From contig CAXXLV010000002.1 of the NCBI GenBank assembly GCA_963664305.2, positions 256,001 through 320,000 of the forward strand: a stretch of DNA of 64,000 nucleotides, given 5' to 3'. Below are positions 46,586-60,426 of the stretch, piece by piece; positions within the stretch are counted from its first letter, which is position 1, and every line of letters starts with the position of its first letter. A model generated the notes under the pieces. It did not search any database, was not told where the DNA came from, and saw only the letters and a list, made by a program, of their open reading frames with translations. Source of the DNA: an uncultured Aliarcobacter sp. (lineage in GTDB: Bacteria; Campylobacterota; Campylobacteria; Campylobacterales; Arcobacteraceae). A program made the translations under genes and the position numbers.

Positions 46586-46675
46586 TAGAAGTTATAAAAG
46601 AAATATTTTTATAAAATTCATATTTTATTAACAATAAATGTATTATCATAGAGAAAATTTTTTTAAGGAAAAAAC

Positions 46676-47269
46676 ATTTCAGCGTCAAAAGAAAACAAAA
46701 AAAATACTATTATAGAAAATGCATTAAAGCTTTTCTCTCAAAAAGGTTTTTATAATACTACAATCCCAGACATTGCAAAAGCAATGAAAATGAGTGTTGG
46801 AAATATGTATAATTATTTTGCTTCAAAAGAAGAATTAGCTAAATTTGCAATAAAATATTCAACAAATATTTTAGCTGATGAATTAAGAGAAGTTAATAAT
46901 ATGGATATTTCATCAAAAGAGAAAATATATATATTTGTAAAAAAATATTTAGAAAATGTTCAAAAATCTCCTGAAATTATTGAGTATTTTTTAAGAGTTT
47001 ACTTATCAAATAGAGAAGTTTTCAAACAAGGATGTGAAGGCTTTTTATGTGTTGGAGAGTTTGTAACAGAAGTTATGATTTTACTTGATGATGGTGCACA
47101 AAAAAAAGAGTTTAGAGAACAAGAATTTTTTCCTGCATTTGGAATGATTATGGGATGTTTAGGTGGATTTGCATTTTTAAGTGGAGAAAATGTACTTGAT
47201 AAAGAACTATTAAGTTATTCAGATGCTGTTGCTGATAATATTTATCGAGCATTAAAGTATGATAAGTGA
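46676..47269 (+). CDS. TetR/AcrR family regulator, probable ATT start (197 aa)
   Basis: The full TetR HTH (IIENALKLFSQKGFYNTTIPDIAKAMKMSVGNMYNYFASKEEL) begins upstream of ATG 46784. In-frame TAA at 46664, AAGGA SD at 46665-46669, ATT at 46676. Confidence 0.85.
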   Translation: MSASKENKKNTIIENALKLFSQKGFYNTTIPDIAKAMKMSVGNMYNYFASKEELAKFAIKYSTNILADELREVNNMDISSKEKIYIFVKKYLENVQKSPEIIEYFLRVYLSNREVFKQGCEGFLCVGEFVTEVMILLDDGAQKKEFREQEFFPAFGMIMGCLGGFAFLSGENVLDKELLSYSDAVADNIYRALKYDK

Positions 47270-48152
47270 ATCTAAACCAACAGTTGTATGGTTTCAAGCA
47301 ATAACATGTAATGGAAATACGCACTCATTATTGAGTGCAAATTCAAATAGATTTGAATTATTTTTAGATAATTTCGATTTTATTTATCATCCTAGTTTAA
47401 CAATTAACAAAACACTTGAAGATATTTTAGAAAATGAAGAAAAAATAGACTTTTTACTAATTGAAGGTTCAATTTCTTCAAATGAATATATATTTTCACT
47501 AACTAACAATTCTACAAAAACTTTATTAGAAAAATTAGCTTTAAAAACAAAATATATTATCTGTGTTGGTTCATGTGCCTCTTTTGGAGGGATACATGCA
47601 AAATTTACTCAACATAATGATATTTTTAGTGTAAAAAAATCTTTAGAAAAATCAATTTTAGATAATTTAGAACATCAAATCATAAATCTTTCAGGTTGTC
47701 CTGTTCATCCTGAGTGGATATTTCAAACACTTTTTATTCTAAAAAATTATGGAAAAATTTCTTTAGATGAACAAGGACGTCCAAAAGAACTTTATAGTTC
47801 TTTAACTCATCATGGTTGTACAAGAAATGAGTATTTTGAATGGAAAGTTGAAGGTGAATTTGGACAAAAAGAGGGATGTCTGTTTTACAATCAAGGATGT
47901 CGTGGTCCTATGACACATAGTTCTTGCAATAAAATTCTTTGGAATGAAATTAGCTCAAAAACAAGAGTAGGGATGCCTTGTATTGGTTGTACAGAAGCTG
48001 ATTTTCCAAGAACAGATTTACTTGAAACGAAAAAAAATATGGGAATACCACAAGATGTTCCTTTTGGAATTTCAAAAAGAGCTTATCTAACAATAAGTGG
48101 AGTTGCAAAAACTTTTAAAATAGATAGATTACATAAAAAATTAATGGAATAA
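47259..48152 (+). CDS. hupS: Cytoplasmic group 2-type (probably 2d) [NiFe]-hydrogenase small subunit
   Basis: No Tat signal and no TM; TCNGN, GSCASFGG, GCPVHP, HHGCTR, GCRGP, PCIGC. Confidence 0.85.
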   Translation: MISESKPTVVWFQAITCNGNTHSLLSANSNRFELFLDNFDFIYHPSLTINKTLEDILENEEKIDFLLIEGSISSNEYIFSLTNNSTKTLLEKLALKTKYIICVGSCASFGGIHAKFTQHNDIFSVKKSLEKSILDNLEHQIINLSGCPVHPEWIFQTLFILKNYGKISLDEQGRPKELYSSLTHHGCTRNEYFEWKVEGEFGQKEGCLFYNQGCRGPMTHSSCNKILWNEISSKTRVGMPCIGCTEADFPRTDLLETKKNMGIPQDVPFGISKRAYLTISGVAKTFKIDRLHKKLME

Positions 48153-48154
48153 AA

Positions 48155-49510
48155 GTGAAGACAGTAGATATAGTAGAAAGAATTGAAGGTGAAGCAAAAC
48201 TTAACTGTTCATGGGATAATGGAATTATTAGTGATGCACGAATTGATTTTCTAAATTTTAGAGGTTTTGAATATATTTTAGAAGGAAAATCACCTTTAGA
48301 TGCTTTGATTTATACTCCACGAATTTGTGGAATTTGTGGACAAGCACATTTAAAAGCTACTGTTGATGCTTTAGAAAATATATATGAAAACATTGGTGAA
48401 AAAATAGAAGTTTCAGAAAAAGCTAAACTTTTAAGACAAATTGGTTTAAATATAGAGATTATTGATTCTCATATAAAATGGTTTTATCTGTTTATAATGC
48501 CTGATATTATTAAACTTGACAAAAATGATTTAGGAATTTATGAACCTTTAAAAGGAAAAAGATGGCTAGAAGCTTGTAAAACTGCAAGCGAAACTATAAA
48601 AGCATTAGCTGTTATTGGAGGGCAATGGCCACATAGTTCTTATATGCTTCCTGGTGGGGTAATGAGTGATCCAACTTTAATGGATTTACTTACTATGCAA
48701 AATTATCTACAAACTGCTTTAAATTTTTTTGAAAATTCAATTGCAGGAGTTTCATTAGATAATTATTTATCATTTGATAGTTTTAAAGATATAGAAAAAC
48801 TTCAAAGTGATATGAGATATTTTAAAGAATTGTCTTTTAAATATGAGTTACATAATTTTGGAAAGTCATACAATAGATTTATAACTTTAGGAGAGTCAAA
48901 TCTATTTAAAAATGGGAAAATTAAAATAAAATTGGTAAATAGAATTGATTTATCAAAAATAAATGAAAATGAAGAATTTACTTTTTCATTAAATAAGCAA
49001 AATAATAGTGAAAATAAACATACTTGGAGTAAATCAGTTTCATATAATGATAATTTTTATGAAACTGGACCTTTATCAAGAGCAATTATATCAAATAGGA
49101 AATTTATAAAAGATATTCATAAAAATTTATCAGATAGTGTATTTACTAGAGTTATTGCAAGAATGGACGAACTTGCTTTTTTAATAGATGATACGAAGTC
49201 ATTAATTTCACAAGTAAATATTTCTGAACCATCATTTATTGAACCTAAAATTTCATTGATTGATATTGAAAAAGCAAATGGAAAATCTGCAATTGAAGCT
49301 ACAAGAGGTTCTTTATATCATAATGTAAACATTGAAAAAGGAAAAATTAAATCTTATGATGTAATAACACCTACTGTTTGGAACTTAGGACCACAAAACA
49401 AAAAACAAAAAGGAATTGCACAAAATGCAATTATTGGAGCTACATCAATTGAAATAGCTAAAATCATTTTGAGAAGTTTTGACGTCTGTTCAGTTTGTAC
49501 AACACATTAG
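48155..49510 (+). CDS. hupL: Cytoplasmic group 2-type [NiFe]-hydrogenase large subunit
   Basis: GTG start; RIEGE, RICGICG; ends FDVCSVCTTH-stop. Confidence 0.88.
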   Translation: MKTVDIVERIEGEAKLNCSWDNGIISDARIDFLNFRGFEYILEGKSPLDALIYTPRICGICGQAHLKATVDALENIYENIGEKIEVSEKAKLLRQIGLNIEIIDSHIKWFYLFIMPDIIKLDKNDLGIYEPLKGKRWLEACKTASETIKALAVIGGQWPHSSYMLPGGVMSDPTLMDLLTMQNYLQTALNFFENSIAGVSLDNYLSFDSFKDIEKLQSDMRYFKELSFKYELHNFGKSYNRFITLGESNLFKNGKIKIKLVNRIDLSKINENEEFTFSLNKQNNSENKHTWSKSVSYNDNFYETGPLSRAIISNRKFIKDIHKNLSDSVFTRVIARMDELAFLIDDTKSLISQVNISEPSFIEPKISLIDIEKANGKSAIEATRGSLYHNVNIEKGKIKSYDVITPTVWNLGPQNKKQKGIAQNAIIGATSIEIAKIILRSFDVCSVCTTH

Positions 49511-49524
49511 TGAATATTCATTCA
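49511..49524. promoter_or_regulatory. Putative TetR operator
   Basis: TGAAT-ATTC-ATTCA. Confidence 0.55.
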
Positions 49525-49724
49525 AAAAAAGTGTATATTAGTAACAGAGTTAAAAAAAACTGAATTAATATACCACTTATATGAAATTCGAACAAAAAAA
49601 TCACCTAAATACCATAAAATCAAAGATAAAAACTATAAATATTTTTATAAAAACTTAAATGTTATTTTAATGCTATTTTTAAATGTTTATTATTAAGTAA
49701 GACCTAAGTTTCTTATTGTTACTT

Positions 49725-49751
49725 TACAATAAAGTAAATGAATATTCATTT
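49725..49751 (+). promoter_or_regulatory. hydA -10 box and adjacent putative TetR operator
   Basis: TACAAT at 49725-49730; TAAAT-GAAT-ATTCA at 49735-49748, overlapping the 16-bp palindrome AAATGAATATTCATTT (49736-49751). Confidence 0.6.
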
Positions 49752-49765
49752 TAAGGAGCAAAACT

Positions 49766-51001
49766 ATGATTGATTCAACGGAAATGGTAAAAAAAGTTTT
49801 TACCCAAAAGTCAGGAAAAGTTGAAACAAATAAAGGTGAAGTTTACTACAACTCTTTATTTGAGAAAACTAAACAAAGATTAAAAGATTTAAGAGCACAA
49901 GAACCTCTTAAAGATATTGATATGATGGATATAATTGAAAGTGAAGGAATAAATAGAAGAGATTTTATGAAGTGGGTTAGTGCTACAACTGCTACACTTA
50001 TGCTTCCTCCTATGTTTGCTCCACTTGTTGCAGAAGCAACTGAACTTATGAATAGAGTTCCAGTTATCTGGATAGAGTTACAAGACTGTGCTGGAAACTC
50101 TGAAGCTCTTTTAAGAAGTTCAGCTCCAACAGTAGATGACTTATTATTTGATGTGTTAAGTTTAGAGTATCATGAAACGCTACAAGCTGCTGCTGGACAT
50201 GATGCAGATAAACAACTTGAAGAAGCTGTTGAACACTTCAAAGGTAAATATATATTATTTGTTGAAGGTGCTATTCCAATGGCTATGAATGGTCAATATG
50301 GAACAATTGGTGCTATGGGTGAAACTTTCCATGACCATCTTGTAAGAATGTCAAAAGATGCTGCAGCTGTTGTTGCTGTTGGTACTTGTGCAACATTTGG
50401 AGGAATTCCTGCTGCTGCTCCAAATCCAACTGGTGCTGTTGGTGTTATGGATATTGTAAAAGGTAAGCCAATTATTAATATTCCTGCATGTCCTGCAAAC
50501 CCAGCTAACATGGTTGGTGTTGTTTTACACTATGTATTAACTGGACAAATTCCAGAACTTGATTCTTTACTAAGACCTAAATTTGCATTTGGATATAGAA
50601 TTCATGATAACTGTGAAAGAAGAGCACACTTTGATGCTGGTGAATTCGTAGAAGAGTGGGGTGATGAAGGTGCTAAAAATAACTGGTGTTTATATAAAGT
50701 TGGATGTAAAGGTCCTATGACATTTAATAACTGTTCAATCATCAGATATAACGAAGGTACAAACTGGCCAATTGGGGTTGGAAGAGGATGTATTGGATGT
50801 TCTGAGCCAGATTTCTGGGATAAATATGCTTATGAAAGACCAATGGCTGATGCAAAAATTAAAGCACCAACAGGCGGAGTTGAAAAAACAGTTGATGAGT
50901 TTGGTCTTGGATTATTAACAGCAACGGCTGTAGGTATTGGAGTTCATGCAGTTGCAAGTGTTGTTGCTGGTAAAAAATCAAATGAAGGAGAAGAAAAATA
51001 A
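49766..51001 (+). CDS. hydA: Membrane-bound uptake [NiFe]-hydrogenase small subunit
   Basis: Tat motif NRRDFMK; Fe-S Cys motifs; C-terminal anchor GIGVHAVAS. Confidence 0.95.
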   Translation: MIDSTEMVKKVFTQKSGKVETNKGEVYYNSLFEKTKQRLKDLRAQEPLKDIDMMDIIESEGINRRDFMKWVSATTATLMLPPMFAPLVAEATELMNRVPVIWIELQDCAGNSEALLRSSAPTVDDLLFDVLSLEYHETLQAAAGHDADKQLEEAVEHFKGKYILFVEGAIPMAMNGQYGTIGAMGETFHDHLVRMSKDAAAVVAVGTCATFGGIPAAAPNPTGAVGVMDIVKGKPIINIPACPANPANMVGVVLHYVLTGQIPELDSLLRPKFAFGYRIHDNCERRAHFDAGEFVEEWGDEGAKNNWCLYKVGCKGPMTFNNCSIIRYNEGTNWPIGVGRGCIGCSEPDFWDKYAYERPMADAKIKAPTGGVEKTVDEFGLGLLTATAVGIGVHAVASVVAGKKSNEGEEK

Positions 51002-52743
51002 TGGCAAAAAAACATTTAGTAATTGACCCAATTACAAGAATAGAAGGACATCTTAGAATTGAAGCAATCATTGATGAAAACAATGTTGTAACAGATGCTT
51101 ACTCTTCTTCAACTATGTTTAGAGGAATTGAAGAGATTTTAAAAGGAAGAGACCCAAGAGATTGTGGACTTTTAGCTATGAGAATTTGTGGAGTTTGTAC
51201 AGGAACTCACTATCAAAGAAGTATTGAAGCTGTTGAACATGCATTTAATATTACAATTCCTAAAAATGCAAGATTAGTAAGAAACCTAATCCAAGGTGCT
51301 TTATATGTTCATGACCATATTGTTCACTTCTATCATTTACATGCTCTTGACTGGGTTGATATCACAGAAGCTTTAAAAGCAGATCCTAAAGCAACAGTTG
51401 CAGAAGCTCAAAAATGGGCAGCAGTTTCAGGACATAGACCATGGAATGCAACAGAAGATGTTTATGCACAAGTTCAAGAAAGAGTTACAAAATATGTAAA
51501 ACAAGGAAGACTTGGGATTTTTGGAAATGCATATTGGGGAAGCAAAGGATTTAAACTTACTCCTGAGCAAAACTTAATTGGACTTTCACACTATTTAGAT
51601 GCACTTGAATTACAAAGAGATTTAGCAAAAATGATGGCTATTTTTGGTGGTAAAAATCCACATCCACAATCTTTCGTTGTTGGTGGAGTAACTTGTGTTC
51701 AAGATATTAAAAATCCTGCAAGAATTGCAGAATTTAAACAAATCTTAAAAAGAGGTCAAAAGTTCACTAAAGAAGCATATTTACCAGATGTTTATATGGC
51801 TGGAACAATGTATGCAGAAGAAGCATTAGAAGGAATTGGTGGTGGTTTAGGAAACTATATGTCTTATGGAGACTTTAGATTAGATGATTTACCATTCTAT
51901 GAATCTTCAAAATTATTCCCTTCAGGAATTGTAAAAAATAAAGATTTATCAAAAGTTTATGAAATTGACCAAACAAAAATTACAGAAGATGTAACTCATG
52001 CTTGGTATGAAGGAAATACAAATCTTCACCCATTTGATGGAGTAACAAAACCTAACTATACAGGATTTGGTAAAAAAGAAGATAATATCGCTTATTTAGA
52101 TACAACTAAAAAATATTCTTGGATTAAATCACCATTATATAATGATGAAAGAATGGAAGTTGGACCATTAGCAAGGATGATTGTTGGTGTTGCTAAAGGT
52201 GATGAAAGAATTACAAAATATGTAACAACTTTCTTAAAAAATGGTAATTTACCAACAAAAGTATTATTCTCAACAGTTGGAAGAACAGCTGCAAGAGCTA
52301 TTGAAACTGAATTAATGGCTGATGTTATGATGGAATGGGTTGATGAATTAGCATCAAACGTTGCACATGGTGATTTATCAACTTGGACAGAATTTAACTT
52401 TGAAAATGTTTCTAAAGATTGTCAAGGTTATGGAATGGCTGAAGCTCCAAGAGGTGGATTAGGTCACTGGATAAAAATAAAAGATGGTAAAGTTGTAAAT
52501 TATCAAGCAGTTGTTCCATCAACTTGGAATGCAGCACCAAGAGATTATAAAGGAAGATTAGGTGCTTATGAATCATCATTAATTGGTACAAAAGTAGCAA
52601 ATCCTGATCAACCACTTGAAATTTTAAGAACTGTTCATAGTTTTGACCCATGTATTGCTTGTGCAGTACATATTATTGATACTAACGGTAAAGAGTTAGG
52701 AGTTTATAAAGTAGATCCAATTGGAGGAACAAGCCGTGCCTAA
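51001..52743 (+). CDS. hydB: Membrane-bound uptake [NiFe]-hydrogenase large subunit
   Basis: DPITRIEGH, RICGVC, DPCIACAVH plus a cleavable C-terminal extension. Confidence 0.97.
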   Translation: MAKKHLVIDPITRIEGHLRIEAIIDENNVVTDAYSSSTMFRGIEEILKGRDPRDCGLLAMRICGVCTGTHYQRSIEAVEHAFNITIPKNARLVRNLIQGALYVHDHIVHFYHLHALDWVDITEALKADPKATVAEAQKWAAVSGHRPWNATEDVYAQVQERVTKYVKQGRLGIFGNAYWGSKGFKLTPEQNLIGLSHYLDALELQRDLAKMMAIFGGKNPHPQSFVVGGVTCVQDIKNPARIAEFKQILKRGQKFTKEAYLPDVYMAGTMYAEEALEGIGGGLGNYMSYGDFRLDDLPFYESSKLFPSGIVKNKDLSKVYEIDQTKITEDVTHAWYEGNTNLHPFDGVTKPNYTGFGKKEDNIAYLDTTKKYSWIKSPLYNDERMEVGPLARMIVGVAKGDERITKYVTTFLKNGNLPTKVLFSTVGRTAARAIETELMADVMMEWVDELASNVAHGDLSTWTEFNFENVSKDCQGYGMAEAPRGGLGHWIKIKDGKVVNYQAVVPSTWNAAPRDYKGRLGAYESSLIGTKVANPDQPLEILRTVHSFDPCIACAVHIIDTNGKELGVYKVDPIGGTSRA

Positions 52744-53437
52744 AATAAAAGAGGTTAAAAGAATGACAGGAACTATGAGAATCATACATTGGGCAAATGC
52801 TATATGTATGGTAGTTGCTGTTGTAACCGGTTTATATATAGGTCATCCATACTATCAAACATTTATAGCAGATCCAGCAGTGGATAAATATGTAATGGCA
52901 TGGAATAGATGGGGACATTTTATTGTTGCAATTATTTTTGACGTAACTGCTGTATTAATTGGTTATTTATACTTCTTTTCAAGATTTGAAAAACCATATA
53001 AAAAACTAATTCCTACAAAGAAAAATATTGTTGAATTTTGTGAGGTATTTTTAAATTTAATTACTTTTAATAGAAGAAAAAATTTTGATTCTTCTCATAG
53101 TGATAGTTATAATATTGTATTTTTTACAATATTTCACTTATTGTTAATATTTATGTTATTTACTGGACTTCAGTTATATGTTCATGGTTTAGCTTCAGGA
53201 AACAGCTCTATTGGTGCTTGGTGGCCTGCCATGTTACATTTAACAACAGATTGGACTATAACAGTTTTTGGTGGAAATATGGGAGTTAGAATTGCTCATC
53301 ATACATCAATGTATTTGATTTTAGTTTGGGTAATGTGTCATATTTATTATCAAATCTGGAGAACAATCTTCTGGAAAGAGGGAGATATTGCTATTGTTAT
53401 TGGTGGTAGTAAATTTGTAAGAGAAGAAGAGAAATAA
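52736..53437 (+). CDS. hydC: Hydrogenase cytochrome b subunit
   Basis: RIIHW, RWGHF, AHH and CHIY heme His motifs; GTG at 52736 after GGAGG. Confidence 0.93.
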   Translation: MPKIKEVKRMTGTMRIIHWANAICMVVAVVTGLYIGHPYYQTFIADPAVDKYVMAWNRWGHFIVAIIFDVTAVLIGYLYFFSRFEKPYKKLIPTKKNIVEFCEVFLNLITFNRRKNFDSSHSDSYNIVFFTIFHLLLIFMLFTGLQLYVHGLASGNSSIGAWWPAMLHLTTDWTITVFGGNMGVRIAHHTSMYLILVWVMCHIYYQIWRTIFWKEGDIAIVIGGSKFVREEEK

Positions 53438-53506
53438 GACTAAGCGCAAAGCTTAGTCTTATAACTTTTTTATAAGTTTAAATTGTAGATTTATAAAAGA
53501 GTTATA
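53434..53506 (+). other. Tandem RNA hairpins between hydC and hydD
   Basis: 12-bp perfect stem at 53434-53462; 21-bp stem at 53460-53506 with three G-U pairs. Confidence 0.65.
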
Positions 53507-53519
53507 AAGGGTGTAATTT

Positions 53520-54110
53520 ATGAAAAAAAATATTGTTGTTGGCGTTGGAAATATGCTTTTTAAAGATGAAGGCATAGGAATTTATGCAAGTGAATATATC
53601 AAACAAAATTATGAGTTTGATGATAAAGATTTAGAAATCATTGATGGTGGAACATTAGGATTTAAATTAATGGCATATTTTCAAGAGTATGATAATGTAA
53701 TTATTTTAGATACAGTTTCTATAGAAGATGAAGTTGGAGGCATCTATAGACTTCCAAGTGATGTTCTTTTAGGACTTGGAAATTATAGAAAAACAGCTCA
53801 CGAAGTTGAAATTGTTGAGATGTTAGAGATAGTTTCTGTTTTAGATTCTCATGCAAATGTAACAATCATTGGAATTATTCCACAAGATATTGAAAGTGTT
53901 GAAATAGGGCTTACAAAAGCTATGGAAGATAAGTTTGAAGAGTTTATTCTAAATGGTATCAAAGAGATAGAATCTTTAGGTATTAAAGCAACAAAAATCA
54001 ATGATATAAAAATTAGTGATGTTGTAAAAAGCATGATTGGTAGTTACAATGGTGAACACTTAACTAGAATTCCAAATGAGGAAGATTTTACACATGCAAT
54101 TAATTTATAA
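53520..54110 (+). CDS. hydD: Hydrogenase maturation protease
   Basis: GVGNMLFKDEGIG, IDGGTLG, TAHE. Confidence 0.95.
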   Translation: MKKNIVVGVGNMLFKDEGIGIYASEYIKQNYEFDDKDLEIIDGGTLGFKLMAYFQEYDNVIILDTVSIEDEVGGIYRLPSDVLLGLGNYRKTAHEVEIVEMLEIVSVLDSHANVTIIGIIPQDIESVEIGLTKAMEDKFEEFILNGIKEIESLGIKATKINDIKISDVVKSMIGSYNGEHLTRIPNEEDFTHAINL

Positions 54111-55626
54111 AATAGAATTTAATACAACAAATTTATATTTTAAATATATTATAAACTCTTTAATAAAAGAAGCTAATGTAAATGCTGTTTGTAAACAATA
54201 TAAAGGCTTTATATTAATTATTTTAGAAGAAACATCAGAAAATATAGAGAGTTTTTTTGCTTTATTAGAAAAAAAACTTCCTATGTCTATTTTCATTGGA
54301 AATTCTTATGTAGTTGAAAGTTATGATGAAAATTTAGAAGAATTAGAAGATTTTGAAATAAAACAAAATCTTCATTTACTTACAAATGATGAAATAAAAA
54401 AGATTATAGAAGAAAACAATATTGATTTTTTAAATGATATTGTAAAAATATCAAAAGGTGAGATTTCAAGATTTGAAACACATAATGGTCTAAAAGACTA
54501 CTTTCTACCAAATAAAGATATTAGAGAAGATTTTGAAAGAAGAGGTTTTGAAGTTAAACTTCTTATTACTGATGTGTCAAAATTAGATGAACTTTTTGAT
54601 TTAAATATGAAAGATTTTCAACTTCTTTGTTCGATAGAAAGACCATTGGTAAAACTTAAATTTAAACTTTTAAAAAATGCTAATAAAGAGTTTAGTTCAA
54701 CAAATTTTATTTATGCAAAAATTCCTGATGATAAAGAAGTAGTTTTATTTGCAAAAGCTTTAAAAGAAAATGGCATAAACTATGTTTTATATACAAATGA
54801 TGAAGTTTATCAAGATGGATTAAAAGTTACATATACAAAAGAACAAAACATTATTATCTCAGGAGATAAAGGTTTATTCCCTAAATATGATTTTATTGCA
54901 AGAGAAAAGTTTAATAGTTCAAAAGAGTATTTTGATGCAAATGGTGGAGTTTACAAAGCAATTCTTGCTCAAACTGCAAAAAGATTAATTCCAACTGTTG
55001 GAGTATATTTTTCTTTAAATTCTCAAAATAGTTCAATTTCAATAAATATCCCAACAAAAGGTATTAAACAGATTATTGAAATACCAAATATTCATAATAG
55101 TATTAAAAATTGTTTTGAAGAAATAGCTGATATTGATGAACATTGTTCAAGATTAATTACTAATTTTTCTAAAAAATTTCCAAAAGTATTGGAAAATGAT
55201 GTTCCTGCAAATGCAAATGGATTTGAATCTATTATAAATTTATGTGCAAAAGTTTTAGGCGTAAATAGTGCTAAAGAGTTTGAAGATTATGCTTTAAGTA
55301 CAAGTTTATCAAGTGGTATTCAAATAGATATGAAACTTATAAATTTTAATGGGACTAATTATTTAGATTATAGAAGAGTAGTTCAATCAATCATGGCTTA
55401 TAAAATGGCAGATGTTGATAATATAACTCTAATTTATTCATTTTATGAAAGCTTGAGTGAATTTATTAGTAACTATGTAAATGAAATTGCAAAAGAGACA
55501 AAAGCAAATGATGTTGTTTTGTGTGGAAATATGTTTGCAAACTTAATTTTACTTTCAAAAACAACAAAAGCTTTAAGTAAAACTTACAATCTTATCCTTC
55601 CAAAAGAGTATCCATTAGATTATTAA
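54094..55626 (+). CDS. hydE: HydE-like hydrogenase accessory protein (degenerate HypF-related)
   Basis: Position after hydD; LCSIERPLV and VVLCGNMF resemble HypF segments; ATG 54094 is the likely start. Confidence 0.65.
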   Translation: MQLIYKIEFNTTNLYFKYIINSLIKEANVNAVCKQYKGFILIILEETSENIESFFALLEKKLPMSIFIGNSYVVESYDENLEELEDFEIKQNLHLLTNDEIKKIIEENNIDFLNDIVKISKGEISRFETHNGLKDYFLPNKDIREDFERRGFEVKLLITDVSKLDELFDLNMKDFQLLCSIERPLVKLKFKLLKNANKEFSSTNFIYAKIPDDKEVVLFAKALKENGINYVLYTNDEVYQDGLKVTYTKEQNIIISGDKGLFPKYDFIAREKFNSSKEYFDANGGVYKAILAQTAKRLIPTVGVYFSLNSQNSSISINIPTKGIKQIIEIPNIHNSIKNCFEEIADIDEHCSRLITNFSKKFPKVLENDVPANANGFESIINLCAKVLGVNSAKEFEDYALSTSLSSGIQIDMKLINFNGTNYLDYRRVVQSIMAYKMADVDNITLIYSFYESLSEFISNYVNEIAKETKANDVVLCGNMFANLILLSKTTKALSKTYNLILPKEYPLDY

Positions 55627-55655
55627 GAATAAAATTTATCTTTTGATATTCTTTT

Positions 55656-55689
55656 TTCATAATTATTATAGTAATATAATAATTATGAA
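55656..55689. promoter_or_regulatory. Perfect 15-bp inverted repeat with tandem Fur/PerR-like boxes
   Basis: TTCATAATTATTATA-GTAA-TATAATAATTATGAA, containing TATAAT. Confidence 0.55.
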
Positions 55690-55706
55690 TTATAAAAGGA
55701 AATATT

Positions 55707-56588
55707 ATGGATACTACATTTGACACACAAAATCTAAAAAAAGCACTTAGACAGCAACAAAATGAGATAAATGACCATACTATTTATAAGATTTTAGCAA
55801 CCTATCAAGATGATGAAAACAACAAAAAAATTTTTGAAAAAATATCAAAAGAAGAAAAAGCACACTATGATTTTTGGGTAAAAATTACAAATAAAGAGAT
55901 AAAAGCACAAAAATTTGTAGTATTGTGGTTTGTTTTTCTAGTAAAAATTTTTGGAACATCTTTTGCTTTAAAATCTTTGGAAAAAAGAGAAGCGGGAGCA
56001 GAGGAGTTTTACAAAGAACTTTTTGAAATCTATCCTGAATCACAAAAAATATATAAACAAGAAACTGAACATGAGTTTGAACTTATTGATATGTTAAATG
56101 ATAAAAAACTTTTATATGCTGGAGCTATAGTTTTAGGAATGAATGATGCTTTAGTTGAATTAACTGGAACATTAAGCGGAATAGCATTAGCTTTTGATAA
56201 AAGTTTGGTTGTTGGATTAACAGGATTGATTATGGGAATAGCTGCATCTTTATCAATGGCGGGATCAGCTTATCTTGAAGCTAAAGAAAATCCAATTGAA
56301 GAGATAAATCCTTTAGTTTATTCACTTTATACAGGTGTTTCTTATATTTTAACAACAGCTATTTTAGTTATTCCATTTTTTATATTTGATTCAATGATAG
56401 AATCATTAATAATGATGTTTATTGGTGCATTTATAGCTATTCTTTCTTATAATTTTTATATTAGTGTAGCAAAAGATTTAAGTTTTAGTAAAAGAGTGCT
56501 TCAAATGTCAGCAATTACATTTGGAGTTGCAATAATCTCATTTTTGATAGGTTACTTAGTAAAATATTATTTTGGACTTGAAATATAA
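55707..56588 (+). CDS. Ferritin-like (rubrerythrin) domain plus VIT1/CCC1 transporter
   Basis: EEKAH and ETEH ExxH motifs; VLGMNDALVE, AASLSMAGSAYL. Confidence 0.88.
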   Translation: MDTTFDTQNLKKALRQQQNEINDHTIYKILATYQDDENNKKIFEKISKEEKAHYDFWVKITNKEIKAQKFVVLWFVFLVKIFGTSFALKSLEKREAGAEEFYKELFEIYPESQKIYKQETEHEFELIDMLNDKKLLYAGAIVLGMNDALVELTGTLSGIALAFDKSLVVGLTGLIMGIAASLSMAGSAYLEAKENPIEEINPLVYSLYTGVSYILTTAILVIPFFIFDSMIESLIMMFIGAFIAILSYNFYISVAKDLSFSKRVLQMSAITFGVAIISFLIGYLVKYYFGLEI

Positions 56589-56614
56589 ATAAGGTTTCTA
56601 TAAAACCTTATTTA
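56586..56614 (+). terminator. Hairpin after the VIT1 gene
   Basis: TAAATAAGGTTT/AAACCTTATTTA. Confidence 0.6.
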
Positions 56615-56646
56615 GTTTCAAAGAATAAAACTCTCTTTTTTTATTG

Positions 56647-56730
56647 AAATGAATCTTTATTCATTTAGTCAAGAAAATTTAACCAAAAAGATTATAGAAT
56701 GCTTTTAATAAAAAAGTGAATACCTATTCA
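56647..56730 (+). promoter_or_regulatory. Two putative TetR operators flanking a -10 box
   Basis: AAATGAAT-CTTT-ATTCATTT at 56647-56666; TAGAAT at 56695-56700; TGAAT-ACCT-ATTCA at 56717-56730. Confidence 0.6.
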
Positions 56731-56745: not shown

Positions 56746-58146
56746 ATGGTTAAAGAACTTCCTAATAAAAGTTCAATTTCTTTATTTGAAGAGAAAAAAA
56801 TCCCCTTTTGTCAGACTTGTTTAAAAGAAGTAGAAGAAGAGGGAAATAAAGAGTATTACAATGCTTTTAAATCTTGTAAAAATTGTACGGGATTTGAAGA
56901 AGCAAAATTTATTTTTGAAAAAAAAGAGATAGCTTCAAATAAAATATTATTTGAAAAACTTGCTTCATTAATAAATGAAGATAAAAAGATAAAAATAAAA
57001 ACATTAAGTGGAATATTTATCTTTTCTAAACTAAAAAACATTGAGAATAGTTCAAAATTATTAGTAACAAATCTAAAAAATATCAATACTCTAGTTATTG
57101 AAAAAAAAGTAGAAATAGAAGCTTTATCCAGCGTGGAAAAACCATCTATTGATTTTGAAATAAATGAGAGTTATAAACAAAAGAACAATATAAAAAAAGA
57201 GAAGATTAATATCAGATTTTCAAATGATTTAACTTTATTTTTATTGTCAAAAAAGTTAGAGAAATATGAGATAAATTTTTTAAATATTGAAGAAACTGGT
57301 GAATTTGACTATTTTTTAGATGTAAAATGTAAAAAAGATATTTATATAGATATTCCAAAAATCAAATGTTTTGATGATAAAAAATTGATTTTAGAATCAA
57401 ATTCTTATCCAAAAAAGTTAGATTTGGTATTTGAAAAATTTAAAGAAAAAAATAAAGCTCAATTTATGACAGTTTTATGGGAAAATAATCTTTTTAAAGA
57501 GTCAATATTAAACTTTTATATTAGTAGTAAAAATAATGATGGAATAAGTTACTATTCTGAAGAAATAGATGGCTTAGTTGATATTATAGAGCCATTACCT
57601 ATTCCAAAATCTATAAAAAAGATATTTGAAGAAATAGAAAAAGAGTCAAAAGGTAAAAAGCTTATTTCAAGCTATAAAAAAAAGTTTCCAGAAGATTATA
57701 AAATAGCTTTAAATAGTCCAATATCTTTCGTAAATAATTCCTTTTTTACATACTTTCAAATAGCTAAAATAGTTTTAAATTTTGAAAAAGAGATACTTGA
57801 AAATGCAACAGAATGTTTGTTAGAAAAAGGACTTAGAATAGATTATAAATTATTTGATTCTAAAAAGATATTTCATAGAAAATTTGATTATATAGCACTG
57901 TTTAGCTCAGCAATTAGTTTTAAACTAGCAGGTGTGGATGAAAGAGCTATATCTCTAGGATTTATTGAAAGTTTAGCGAATTTTATTGCAAATGAAATAG
58001 ATAATATAAATAGTGTTTATGCTATTTCAGGAATTAGTTTATGTGGAGATATGTTTACTAATGATAAGTTCAATTTTTTAGTAGAAAAAAATATAACAAA
58101 GAGTTTTAAAATCTATTACAATAAAGAGTTTGTCATTCAAAAATAG
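56746..58146 (+). CDS. HypF/HydE-related accessory protein with one CxxC-x18-CxxC zinc finger
   Basis: CQTC-x18-CKNC; segments align by eye with the adjacent HypF; C-terminal ISLCGDMF. Confidence 0.65.
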   Translation: MVKELPNKSSISLFEEKKIPFCQTCLKEVEEEGNKEYYNAFKSCKNCTGFEEAKFIFEKKEIASNKILFEKLASLINEDKKIKIKTLSGIFIFSKLKNIENSSKLLVTNLKNINTLVIEKKVEIEALSSVEKPSIDFEINESYKQKNNIKKEKINIRFSNDLTLFLLSKKLEKYEINFLNIEETGEFDYFLDVKCKKDIYIDIPKIKCFDDKKLILESNSYPKKLDLVFEKFKEKNKAQFMTVLWENNLFKESILNFYISSKNNDGISYYSEEIDGLVDIIEPLPIPKSIKKIFEEIEKESKGKKLISSYKKKFPEDYKIALNSPISFVNNSFFTYFQIAKIVLNFEKEILENATECLLEKGLRIDYKLFDSKKIFHRKFDYIALFSSAISFKLAGVDERAISLGFIESLANFIANEIDNINSVYAISGISLCGDMFTNDKFNFLVEKNITKSFKIYYNKEFVIQK

Positions 58147-58179
58147 GTATAGTTTTAAAATTGTACAAAAAGTGAAGAA

Positions 58180-60426
58180 ATGATAAATTTAAAAATAGAA
58201 GTTACAGGTATAGTTCAAGGGGTAGGTTTTCGTCCTTTTATATATAATCTAGCGATAAAACATAATATAAAAGGCTGGGTTAATAATGACGAAAAAGGTG
58301 TAAATATTTTTCTTTATGCAAAAGAAGAAGATATAGAAAACTTTACAGATGAACTAAAATCAAATCCTCCAATCTTGGCAAAAATAGATTCAATAAAAAT
58401 TGAAAAAATAACTAATAAAACTGACTATAAAGATTTCCAAATAATAGAGAGTTCAAGCTCAAATAATAAAACTACAATTATCTCTCCTGACATTGCAATA
58501 TGTGAAGATTGTATCAATGAAATCAATGATATGTCTAACTTTAGATACAATTATTGTTTAACAAATTGTACAAATTGTGGCCCTAGATATTCTATAATAA
58601 AAACTGTACCTTATGATAGAGAAAATACCTCTATGAGAGAGTTTAAATTATGCAAAAAATGCCAAGAAGAGTATGAAAATCCTACAAATAGAAGATATCA
58701 TGCTCAGCCAGTTTCTTGTGAAGTTTGTGGCCCTAATGCAACTTTGTATAATAAAAAAAATATAGAAATATCTAACAATATAGAAGCGATAGAAAAAACA
58801 GCTAAATTAATAGATGAAGGTTACATCGTAGCTGTAAAAGGAATGGGTGGTTTTCATTTAATATGTGATGCTACAAATGATAAAATTGTAAGTAAATTAA
58901 GGACTATTAAGAATAGACCAACTAAGCCATATGCACTACTTTTTAATAATATTAATACTATTAAAGAATATACAAATATAGATTTTATAGAAGAAGAGAT
59001 TTTAAACTCTAAAGAGAAACCAATTGTTCTTGTAAATAAAAAAGAAAATAGCTCCTTATCAAAATACATAGCACCAAATGTTAATAAATTAGGATGCTTT
59101 ATAGCTTATACACCTTTACACCATTTGTTATTTAGATATATAAACAAACCACTTGTTGCAACAAGTGCAAATCTTAAAGATGAACCAATAATAAGAAGTA
59201 AAAAAGAGATTTTTGAGAAGTTGATAGATGTTGTTGATTTTATTTTAGATTTTAATAGAGAAATCGTAAATGCATGTGATGATTCTATTATACAAGTTGT
59301 TAAAAAATATAATATAAAACTAAGAAATGCTAGAGGTTATGCACCAACTGCAATAAAATTGGATAAAAAAGTTGATAAAAAGATTTTATCTTTAGGTGCA
59401 AATCAAAAATCTACTATCTCATTAGCCTTTGAAAATAATTTAATTTTATCTCCTCATATTGGAGATTTAAACTCTATAGAATCAGTTGAATATTTTGAAA
59501 GAACAATTAATACTTTTAAAAATTTTTATGATTTTGAACCAGAAGTTGTAATTTGCGATAAACATCCAAATTATGAATCTACAAAAATAGCTTTAAAACT
59601 AAAAGAAAATAATCCAAATATTAAATTGGTTCAAATACAGCATCATTATGCACATATTCTTTCTGTAATGGCTGAAAATAGACTTGATGAAGAAGTTTTA
59701 GGCTTTGCATTTGATGGAACAGGTTATGGAGATGATGGGAATATTTGGGGAGGTGAAGTATTATTAACTACAAGAAAAGAGTATAAAAGGGTTAAGTATA
59801 TCAAATACTTTAGACTTTTTGGTGGAGAAATGGCAGTAAAAGAGCCAAAAAGAGTTGCTTTGAGTCTTTTATTTGATACTTTTTCATTAGATGAAATTTT
59901 AGCTTTAGATATTCCAACTGTAAAGGCATTTAAAGAAGCAGAAATCAAAATGTTTTATACAATGTGGCAAAAAGGATTAAATGCACCTTTATGTAGCTCT
60001 ATAGGGCGTTTATTTGATGCAATTTCTTCTTTTGCAGATATTTTACATACTCAAACTTATGAAGGTGAAACGGGCTTACAAATAGAGCAAAACTATGATA
60101 GTTCGATAACTTCATCATATTCTTATGAAATAACTGAAAATGAAATAGATTTAAGACCAATAATAAAAGAATTAATTAAAGAAAAAGATAAAAAAATCAT
60201 CTGTTCTAAATTCATAAATACTATTGTAAATCTTATTTTAGAAATCTCAAATTCATACAAAAATTTACCTGTTATTTTAAGTGGTGGAGTTTTTCAAAAT
60301 AAAACTTTACTTGAAATTTTAATTGATAAATTTGAAGAGCAGGGTAGAGTTCTTTACTTCAATATTGATATTCCATCAAATGATGGTGGTATCAGTATAG
60401 GACAAATATATCATCAATACATATAA
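58180..60426 (+). CDS. hypF: Carbamoyltransferase HypF
   Basis: GIVQGVGFRPF, two CxxC-x18-CxxC fingers, QHHYAH, DGTGYG, NDGGISIGQ. Confidence 0.97.
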   Translation: MINLKIEVTGIVQGVGFRPFIYNLAIKHNIKGWVNNDEKGVNIFLYAKEEDIENFTDELKSNPPILAKIDSIKIEKITNKTDYKDFQIIESSSSNNKTTIISPDIAICEDCINEINDMSNFRYNYCLTNCTNCGPRYSIIKTVPYDRENTSMREFKLCKKCQEEYENPTNRRYHAQPVSCEVCGPNATLYNKKNIEISNNIEAIEKTAKLIDEGYIVAVKGMGGFHLICDATNDKIVSKLRTIKNRPTKPYALLFNNINTIKEYTNIDFIEEEILNSKEKPIVLVNKKENSSLSKYIAPNVNKLGCFIAYTPLHHLLFRYINKPLVATSANLKDEPIIRSKKEIFEKLIDVVDFILDFNREIVNACDDSIIQVVKKYNIKLRNARGYAPTAIKLDKKVDKKILSLGANQKSTISLAFENNLILSPHIGDLNSIESVEYFERTINTFKNFYDFEPEVVICDKHPNYESTKIALKLKENNPNIKLVQIQHHYAHILSVMAENRLDEEVLGFAFDGTGYGDDGNIWGGEVLLTTRKEYKRVKYIKYFRLFGGEMAVKEPKRVALSLLFDTFSLDEILALDIPTVKAFKEAEIKMFYTMWQKGLNAPLCSSIGRLFDAISSFADILHTQTYEGETGLQIEQNYDSSITSSYSYEITENEIDLRPIIKELIKEKDKKIICSKFINTIVNLILEISNSYKNLPVILSGGVFQNKTLLEILIDKFEEQGRVLYFNIDIPSNDGGISIGQIYHQYI

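Follow-up and report, generated by a model that had tools for sequence, protein, structure and literature searches.

A TetR regulator and a cytoplasmic hydrogenase as a candidate module for the control of hydrogen uptake in Arcobacteraceae

Gene organization of the locus

The locus considered here lies in a stretch of 64,000 nucleotides (nt) from an uncultured Aliarcobacter sp. (GCA_963664305.2, contig CAXXLV010000002.1, positions 256,001 to 320,000), hereafter the window, which is part of a 2.78-Mb Arcobacteraceae genome. Its central element is a set of three adjacent genes, tetR, hupS, and hupL, which encode a TetR-family regulator and the two subunits of a cytoplasmic [NiFe]-hydrogenase, and which are followed by the operon of a respiratory uptake hydrogenase, hydABCD. 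Genes were called between 43 and 64 kb of the window, and every gene listed there is on the + strand. The order on the 5′ side is acnB, a TehB-like methyltransferase gene, tetR, hupS, and hupL; on the 3′ side hydABCD is followed by genes for a 516-amino acid (aa) protein and a rubrerythrin/VIT protein, o466, hypF, a 151-aa open reading frame (ORF), and a formate-dehydrogenase-like gene. HupSL and HydAB are the only two [NiFe]-hydrogenases in the whole genome.

tetR (46676..47269, + strand) encodes a 197-aa FadR-like regulator with an ATT start codon and a loop GCEGxxC (C120 and C125), as assigned by PF00440, an AlphaFold2 (AF2) model, and fold matches. hupS (47259..48152, + strand; PF01058 and PF14720) encodes the 297-aa small subunit of a cytoplasmic group 2 [NiFe]-hydrogenase without a twin-arginine translocation (Tat) peptide, and hupL (48155..49510, + strand; PF00374) encodes its 451-aa large subunit, which starts with GTG at 48155 and ends in CSVCTTH. 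The three genes are packed as the original prediction had described: the tetR stop codon (47267–47269) and the hupS start (47259) form an 11-bp overlap, and 2 bp separate the hupS stop at 48152 from the hupL start. hydA, hydB, hydC, and hydD (49766..54110, + strand; Pfam, NCBIfam, and synteny) specify a Tat-exported membrane-bound uptake hydrogenase, a cytochrome b, and a maturation protease, and are the predicted main target of TetR. HydA has an RRDFMKW motif and a C-terminal hydrophobic anchor. The contrast that had been drawn between the two large subunits holds, as HydB has 23 residues beyond the His that matches the terminal His of HupL, and HydD is a HycI/HupD-type protease (Pfam, NCBIfam). 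The island had also been said to lack a two-component system, and ORFs of at least 60 aa between 43.3 and 64 kb indeed contain neither a histidine kinase domain nor one of a response regulator, the genome at large not having been searched for HoxJ-like kinases. Related loci were compared with the proteins of the window only.

A candidate tetR promoter (TTCATA-18 nt-TATTAT with a TG before the −10; 46617..46646, + strand) coincides with a block that is conserved upstream of tetR in 13 same-genus loci. It is among the sites of a consensus promoter scan, which returned 21 promoter-like sites, compared with 25.2 expected from shuffles, and is uninformative in this AT-rich DNA; a terminator scan found no intrinsic terminator between hupL and hydA. 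The only RNA contigs with parts of the stretch are from wastewater libraries of relatives, and they lie on tetR, hupS, hupL, and hydAB. Contig depths cannot rank genes, and at 85% likeness better conserved genes draw more relatives, so that these contigs give no expression levels, operon ends, or transcript starts.

Conservation of the tetR-hupS-hupL module

All 18 loci of relatives with a HupL orthologue (12 of the same genus and 6 of other families) have the order tetR-hupS-hupL and then a hydABC-type operon, which in one of them (L051) lies 3.5 kb downstream of the module. The 11-nt overlap of tetR and hupS recurs in 12 of 13 loci of the genus. A scan of species genomes with a TetR alignment gave 80 loci from Campylobacterota and Aquificota, namely Arcobacteraceae, Sulfurimonas, Sulfurovum, Sulfurospirillum, Nautiliaceae, Hydrogenimonas, and the Aquificota groups Persephonella, Hydrogenothermaceae, and Aquificaceae. 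hupS is directly downstream of tetR in 76 of the 80; of the other four, two run into contig ends, and two, both from Aquificaceae, are without hupS. Similar gene orders had been expected in other Campylobacterota, and the survey bears this out and extends it to Aquificota. It had equally been expected that any novelty would not lie in the gene order. The adjacency is in print for S. multivorans, where the TetR beside hupSL was read as a hupSL repressor (Kruse 2017, citing Goris 2014).

Among 251 genomes drawn evenly from the order (a single draw), TetR is present in 118 and a HupL orthologue in 115; 111 genomes have both, 7 only TetR, 4 only HupL, and 129 neither. All 4 genomes with HupL alone are fragmented assemblies, with two of the HupL matches at contig starts, and several TetR-only genomes belong to a family with a very divergent HupL, close to the threshold. 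In 101 of the 111 genomes the two genes are co-oriented, with tetR at most 5 kb upstream of hupL, and in the other 10 they are on different contigs. TetR is better conserved than either subunit of the enzyme beside it, at 87–95% identity vs. 69–83% for the hydrogenase within the genus, and 55–61% vs. 35–44% across families. It also forms a narrow subfamily, with 9 clusters (50% clustering) at E ≤ 1e-30 among 1.84 billion proteins, and the closest TetR and HupL proteins carry Aliarcobacter and Arcobacter species names.

The predicted operator

The palindrome TGAAT-N4-ATTCA occurs in 10 exact copies in the 2.78-Mb genome. It is not common as such, since Markov-3 simulated genomes contain 12–21 copies. 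Four of the 10 stand by hydrogenase operons: three in the window (O1, O3, and O4) and one 33 nt before hypB-hypC-hypD at G000:C2:348449, 36 kb beyond the window. O1 (TGAATATTCATTCA, 49511..49524) comes right behind the hupL stop, where the hupL-hydA spacer begins, ~240 nt before the hydA start, and is present in 8 of 13 same-genus loci. O3 (TGAATCTTTATTCA, 56650..56663) lies upstream of o466, and O4 (TGAATACCTATTCA, 56717..56730) abuts the o466 ribosome-binding site. Closest to hydA is O2 (TAAATGAATATTCATTTT, 49735..49752), a one-mismatch double site (TAAATGAATATTCATTT) with a perfect 16-bp palindrome, AAATGAATATTCATTT, inside it. O2 begins 5 nt past a candidate hydA −10 box (TACAAT, 49725..49730, + strand), which is kept in TetR-plus and TetR-minus relatives, and abuts the hydA ribosome-binding site. 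The AATGAATATTCATT of O2 is unique in the genome, and O2 is kept in all 13 TetR-plus same-genus loci. The palindromes that had been noticed at the hydA and maturation-gene promoters are thus present as O1–O4 and go far beyond chance, and the motif tracks the module across families, as follows.

Within 200 nt before the start of the hydA-type gene the motif, with at most one mismatch, is found in 53 of 59 loci, 33 of them exact, and in all 41 loci where HydA is at least 65% identical. It mostly lies 10–35 nt before the start codon, also in the Aquificota loci L089, L093, and L102, and these 12.1 kb of upstream DNA hold 37 of the 58 exact motifs in the 807 kb of the 80 loci. Upstream of tetR itself, the motif with at most one mismatch occurs in 14 of 77 loci, only one of them exact; as the operator is rare there, hupSL is not simply a regulated target. 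Where hydA is unlinked to the module or spaced from it in TetR-plus genomes, the motif stands 12–61 nt before its start in 11 of 14 cases, and one has two copies further up; the factor that binds the operator would therefore act in trans. Seven same-genus genomes have orthologous hydABCD genes (HydA 85–91% identical) and no tetR-hupSL, and none of them (0/7) has the motif upstream of hydA; their flanking blocks and TACAAT are kept, and ..AATATTTACTTTT.. replaces the palindrome. In 23 further TetR-less genomes from nine families, the ~400 nt before hydA hold no motif, with one mismatch allowed. An exact motif 31–32 nt upstream of hypB is present in 4 of 5 TetR-plus and in 0 of 5 TetR-less same-genus genomes. 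One locus (L179) has a tetR with an in-frame stop and still has the operator site. Relatives are not independent, and no tree stands behind these counts; as five families (f1, f4, f6, f8, and f15) contain both TetR-plus and TetR-less genomes, the link between motif and module does not go back to a single event.

The remaining six exact copies in the genome comprise three inside genes and three upstream of non-hydrogenase genes. The latter are found before a sulfite-oxidase-like molybdoenzyme (G000:C2:1353390), malic enzyme (G000 C2:704997), and a TIM-barrel/flavoprotein gene pair (G000 C1:615073), and are possible extra members of the regulon or chance sites. A one-mismatch site also lies ~95 nt upstream of nrfH; with 315 such sites in 2.78 Mb, any 300-nt stretch has a ~3% chance of holding one. 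Fur/PerR and NikR were rejected as binders of the palindrome, because exact copies number only 10, no intergenic one stands beside an evident iron or nickel uptake gene, and the motif vanishes with the module.

Two other elements were seen in the hupL-hydA spacer. A direct repeat, TGCTA-N6-TGCTA (49660–49682), is kept in 13 TetR-plus same-genus loci and is absent from the 7 TetR-less genomes of the genus and from other families. It may be the site of a second regulator; a sigma-54 reading was rejected by eye, as there is no GG. A block AAAAAAAGTGTATATTAGTAACA (49518–49545), ~220 nt upstream of hydA, is kept in TetR-plus and TetR-less relatives and is a candidate distal promoter or further binding site.

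The TetR protein

The tetR frame is open from 46667, and its first ATG, at 46784, lies beyond the helix-turn-helix (HTH). Since the HTH precedes this ATG, translation must start at the ATT at 46676, which follows AAGGA by 6 nt and has an in-frame stop just upstream, in the spacer after the ribosome-binding site. All 13 same-genus loci share the ATT start (once ATA) and the upstream stop, whereas tetR begins with ATG or TTG in other families; the NCBI orthologues are likewise annotated at 197 aa. As with infC, the conserved ATT points to a deliberately weak translation of tetR. An ATT start and overlapping stop and start codons would fit a low supply of TetR at a fixed ratio to HupS.

TetR contains a TetR-type HTH (PF00440, E 4.5e-15, residues 12–55). 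Its AF2 model has a predicted local distance difference test (pLDDT) score of 89.8 and 10 helices in an all-helical, two-domain fold. A structure search of the PDB with this model gave 366 matches at E ≤ 0.001, and all those among them that were listed are TetR-family or TetR-like proteins. The top folds are Bacillus FadR proteins, with template modelling (TM) scores of 0.81–0.85 at ~20% identity. Conservation is strongest in a stretch of the C-terminal domain and not in the HTH. This stretch, YLSNREVFxxGCEGxxCVxxFVTE, is the α6-α7 region and is modelled as a lower-confidence loop; C120, E121, G122, and C125 within it are invariant in 36 orthologues from two phyla. Three Cys residues in this domain had been proposed as a redox or metal switch. 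All three are present, and of these C120 and C125 are conserved; the third, in MGCL, is specific to the genus and is Y, S, or A outside it.

The likeness to FadR (YsiA), an acyl-CoA sensor, extends to the DNA, as its operator is of nearly the same type, with two overlapping inverted repeats. The mapped FadR boxes, WTGAATGAMTANTCATTCAN, contain two inverted repeats, shifted by 4 bp, to which a dimer of dimers binds (PMC5397183), and the operators described here are almost the same word, as in TGAATGATTATTCATTC of L050 and TAAATGAATATTCATTT of the window. In FadR the ligand switch consists of the end of α6 and a kink of α7 (PMC5397183), which coincides with the most conserved stretch of TetR. 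The two regulators differ in that hydrogenase genes, not fatty-acid genes, make up the predicted regulon, and their sequences are only ~20% identical.

Another comparison is offered by NemR and other TetR repressors that are switched by Cys chemistry. In these NemR-like proteins, the Cys residues change DNA binding upon direct sensing of oxidants or electrophiles. We know of no Cys-based redox TetR that takes its signal from a hydrogenase. Some genomes have 2–4 paralogues of TetR, many of them in tandem close to further hydrogenase or hypF-like genes (L207–L224; G051, G222, G200, G033, G055, and others).

The HupSL hydrogenase

The N-terminus of HupS, MISESKPTVVWFQAITC, brings the first cluster Cys to residue 17, which leaves no room for a Tat peptide, in accordance with what had been claimed. 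The Cys and His metal ligands of HupS are conserved, and a 45-residue tail after the last CxxC cluster motif is strongly conserved over two phyla. The best solved relative of HupS is the small subunit of Huc, a group 2a enzyme (7UTD, E 3e-54), with which it shares a first motif of CxGN. HupL ends in ...FDVCSVCTTH* and has no extension. Its Ni-Fe ligands C58, C61, C445, and C448 are invariant in 36 sequences, and its N-terminal motif is EGE, vs. EGH in HydB. All 58 complete HupL orthologues end in ...C[SA]VC..[HQ], i.e., without a C-terminal extension; the final residue is Q rather than H (CSVCTTQ) in 20 of them (L066–L144).

In many [NiFe] small subunits the first cluster motif contains a second Cys, in whose place HupS (ITCNGN, 47307–47318) and HydA (DCAGNS, 50096–50107) have an Asn; the motif of Huc is CSGN. 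CxGN was rejected as a mark of a sensor, since HydA of the same window and Huc share it.

HupL is 75% identical to an A. butzleri protein, and the sizes of hupS and hupL match huaS (894 nt) and huaL (1,350 nt), which the supplement of PMC12286921 assigns to group 2d. HupSL is thus probably a group 2d (Aquificae-type) enzyme and not group 2b, an assignment based on this identity and on synteny with the A. butzleri pair so classed in PMC12286921. Group 2d comprises Aquifex aeolicus Hase III, Hydrogenobacter Hup2, and the HupSL/HuaSL of Campylobacterota; like the module, it is distributed over Aquificota and Campylobacterota. Its members are cytosolic heterodimers with intact Ni-Fe and Fe-S ligands, as is HupSL. 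Roles proposed in print include ferredoxin reduction, sensing, and a “regulatory” one, and a review traces the sensing proposal to 2007. Detection of Aquifex Hase III is difficult, and the same source writes that group 2d “could have a regulatory function” (PMC10052474). hupL transcripts of S. multivorans are near the detection limit (PMC5357620), and no soluble activity is seen in S. denitrificans (PMC4584964).

Comparison with known hydrogen sensors

In the best-known H2-sensing circuits, the group 2b hydrogenase HoxBC/HupUV acts with the kinase HoxJ/HupT and the NtrC-type regulator HoxA/HupR. Like HupSL, the HoxBC/HupUV of Ralstonia, Rhodobacter, and Bradyrhizobium are cytoplasmic, without a Tat peptide, and without a large-subunit extension. 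In both cases the genes of the cytoplasmic enzyme stand next to a regulator gene for a membrane-bound uptake hydrogenase, a predicted one here, and hyp genes are among the targets. The HoxBC-HoxJ-HoxA circuit would serve the same purpose. The resemblance to group 2b, which had been put forward from the sequence, thus stands for the missing extension; it does not stand for the class, which is probably 2d, nor for the signaling partners, since a predicted one-component TetR repressor stands in place of a linked kinase and response regulator. Control would also differ in kind, being derepression here and sigma-54-dependent activation in the group 2b cascade. In the classical sensors, the tail of the small subunit docks the kinase.

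A model for control by H2 or redox state

The tetR-hupS-hupL genes could thus form a three-gene regulatory module. TetR, kept at a low level by its ATT start, would be a FadR-like repressor that binds TGAAT-N4-ATTCA operators, whose full form resembles the 18-bp FadR box TGAATGA-N4-TCATTCA. The operators are positioned at hydA, between the −10 box and the ribosome-binding site, at hypBCD, and in this genome also at o466-hypF, and TetR bound there would keep the respiratory uptake hydrogenase and its maturation genes repressed. TetR is taken to be the binder because it is the sole DNA-binding protein of the module and because both its fold and the motif are FadR-like, and the placement of an operator between a −10 box and a ribosome-binding site fits repression. 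From these sequence data, it is very probable that TetR represses hydABC and maturation genes through the predicted operator.

HupSL, co-translated with TetR and in need of no C-terminal processing, would be the input device: in the presence of H2 or in a reduced state, it would alter TetR so that TetR leaves the DNA, with neither kinase nor response regulator. HupSL is read as an input because HupL needs no endopeptidase, the metal ligands are kept, and the HupS tail is conserved; further grounds are that the enzyme is barely expressed or detected, and that in A. butzleri H2 raises both sets of hynAB 2.3- to 6.2-fold and nrfA 4-fold (PMC12286921, whose supplement does not list the expression of TetR). 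That HupSL is the H2 or redox input of TetR without a kinase is a proposition for which the chances seem about even. The receiving part would most likely be the invariant loop with C120 and C125 in the α6-α7 region; a direct transfer of the signal from HupSL to TetR through Cys residues or a cluster is conceivable and at present doubtful. Pictured in this way, HupSL would be an H2-reading “domain in trans” that passes electrons from H2 through the HupS clusters onto TetR, to a C120/C125 disulfide or a cluster in the Cys loop, and so releases the hydABC, hyp, and perhaps nrf promoters, a speculative version of the model to which we would not give the better chance. Predictions of a HupS, HupL, and TetR complex from three alignments scored 0.42, 0.37, and 0.40, with 0.00 and 0.00 for partner-replaced controls and 0.23 for a HupL-replaced control, short of the required margin of 0.20, and these scores count neither for nor against binding of TetR to HupSL. 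Taken as a whole, a TetR repressor module with HupSL as its H2 or redox input is the best explanation of the locus and is held to be somewhat probable. The original prediction of an H2 circuit is in this sense partly supported.

Contrary evidence and alternative explanations

Several observations weigh against such a circuit. Classical sensor operons are constitutive. In A. butzleri, by contrast, huaSL is lowered with H2 (PMC12286921). S. multivorans, which has the module, transcribes hydB under almost every condition, and still does so after 50 transfers with no H2 added (PMC5357620), and hynAB of Sulfurospirillum sp. hDNRA2 is the same on H2 and on formate (PMC12286921); simple induction by H2 is disfavoured by this constancy, though both organisms are able to produce H2. 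Within the same subfamily, paralogous TetRs occur without hupSL and have distinct loop types, such as FCxxxxCGF or RCDNGYEC, or no Cys, so that the subfamily can use other inputs. The motif is missing from three extra hydA copies in TetR-plus genomes (L169, L174, and L175), from hypB in one TetR-plus genome (G008), and from 6 of 18 loci with a less similar type of hydA, and the 7 TetR-less same-genus genomes may be a single clade and hence not independent. Finally, hupS and hupL are not always contiguous. Genes intervene between them in some loci, among them PIN-domain toxin genes and an opposite-strand gene for a transglutaminase-like protease (L079, 7463–8098; L093, 2590–3006; L097, 2330–4220), and the gap reaches 3–3.7 kb in L081 and L118; no hupL follows hupS in L094, nor in L097, where an ABC-ATPase gene and a PIN gene follow.

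Part of this evidence would suit a TetR that represses the hydrogenase regulon and senses a small ligand or metal of its own, for instance nickel, a metabolite akin to acyl-CoA, or an oxidant that reacts with the Cys pair, with HupSL as a low-abundance enzyme (for ferredoxin reduction or H2 recycling) that happens to share the operon. Fold and operator resemble those of FadR, which is ligand-gated, and there are paralogues without hupSL. In addition, S. multivorans expresses hydB constitutively, and published proposals include a catalytic function comparable to that of Aquifex Hase III. Such an arrangement is nevertheless rather unlikely, for the near-perfect co-occurrence and the overlap of tetR and hupS over two phyla would be hard to explain, hupSL is mostly not behind an operator, and the HupSL enzyme is scarcely detectable where it has been sought. 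Sensing might also be indirect. HupSL would then reduce a diffusible carrier (a thiol, flavin, quinone, or ferredoxin), which TetR would read through its Cys loop or pocket, and both the conservation of all metal ligands in HupS and HupL and the normal ligand domain of TetR would agree with this. No candidate gene for a carrier is conserved in the module, though, and translational coupling suggests a fixed stoichiometry, as between partners, which makes a carrier improbable.

The published remark that TetR “might repress” hupSL (Kruse et al. 2017) leads to a further possibility, in which TetR represses only its own hupSL operon and another factor binds the palindromes at hydA and hyp. A one-mismatch site ~52 nt upstream of tetR in some Arcobacteraceae genera would be in keeping with it. 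The distribution of the sites speaks the other way: a site with at most one mismatch precedes tetR in 14/77 loci vs. the hydA-type gene in 53/59 (41/41 where HydA is orthologous), and the motif is gone with the module in 30/30 TetR-less genomes. As the module, moreover, encodes no other DNA-binding protein than TetR and the motif resembles that of FadR, a repressor confined to its own operon is highly improbable. The preferred reading therefore remains that of a TetR repressor of hydABC and maturation genes with HupSL as its input.

Significance

The role of group 2d hydrogenases (Aquifex Hase III and the HupSL/HuaSL of Campylobacterota) has been in question since the first genomes of vent bacteria, and the module bears on how Campylobacterota without a HoxJ/HoxA-type cascade at this locus adjust hydrogen uptake. 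Hydrogen use matters for primary producers at vents and for host-associated relatives of Arcobacter, Campylobacter, and Helicobacter. The analysis yields a named regulator, a defined 14–18-bp operator with mapped copies, and two candidate Cys residues. If HupSL does feed directly into a repressor, this would be a new coupling of a gas-sensing metalloenzyme to transcription and the first H2 sensor to work without a kinase. Group 2d hydrogenases throughout the two phyla would thereby gain a defined function, and synthetic biology a compact H2-responsive switch. No published description of the operator, of the hydABC/hyp regulon, of the co-occurrence over two phyla, or of TetR as an H2 transducer was found in the literature searched. 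What looks new is therefore TetR as a transducer, the operator, and the regulon; the gene adjacency and the regulatory guess for group 2d are already in print.

Other features of the locus

Downstream of hydD, o466 and then hypF (56746..60426, + strand; Pfam) form a predicted target of TetR in this genome. o466 (56746–58146) encodes a 466-aa protein with weak HypF-finger and Kae1-like matches, and no homologue was found at the corresponding place in the 7 TetR-plus same-genus genomes checked. The 516-aa protein (54076–55626) has a weak match to the C-terminal, Kae1-like part of HypF, and in all relatives its gene comes after hydD. At 55656–55689, 18 nt before the rubrerythrin/VIT gene, two 15-nt arms (TTCATAATTATTATA / TATAATAATTATGAA) around a 4-nt centre form a perfect palindrome, and each arm contains a Fur/PerR-like ATAAT-T-ATTAT core.

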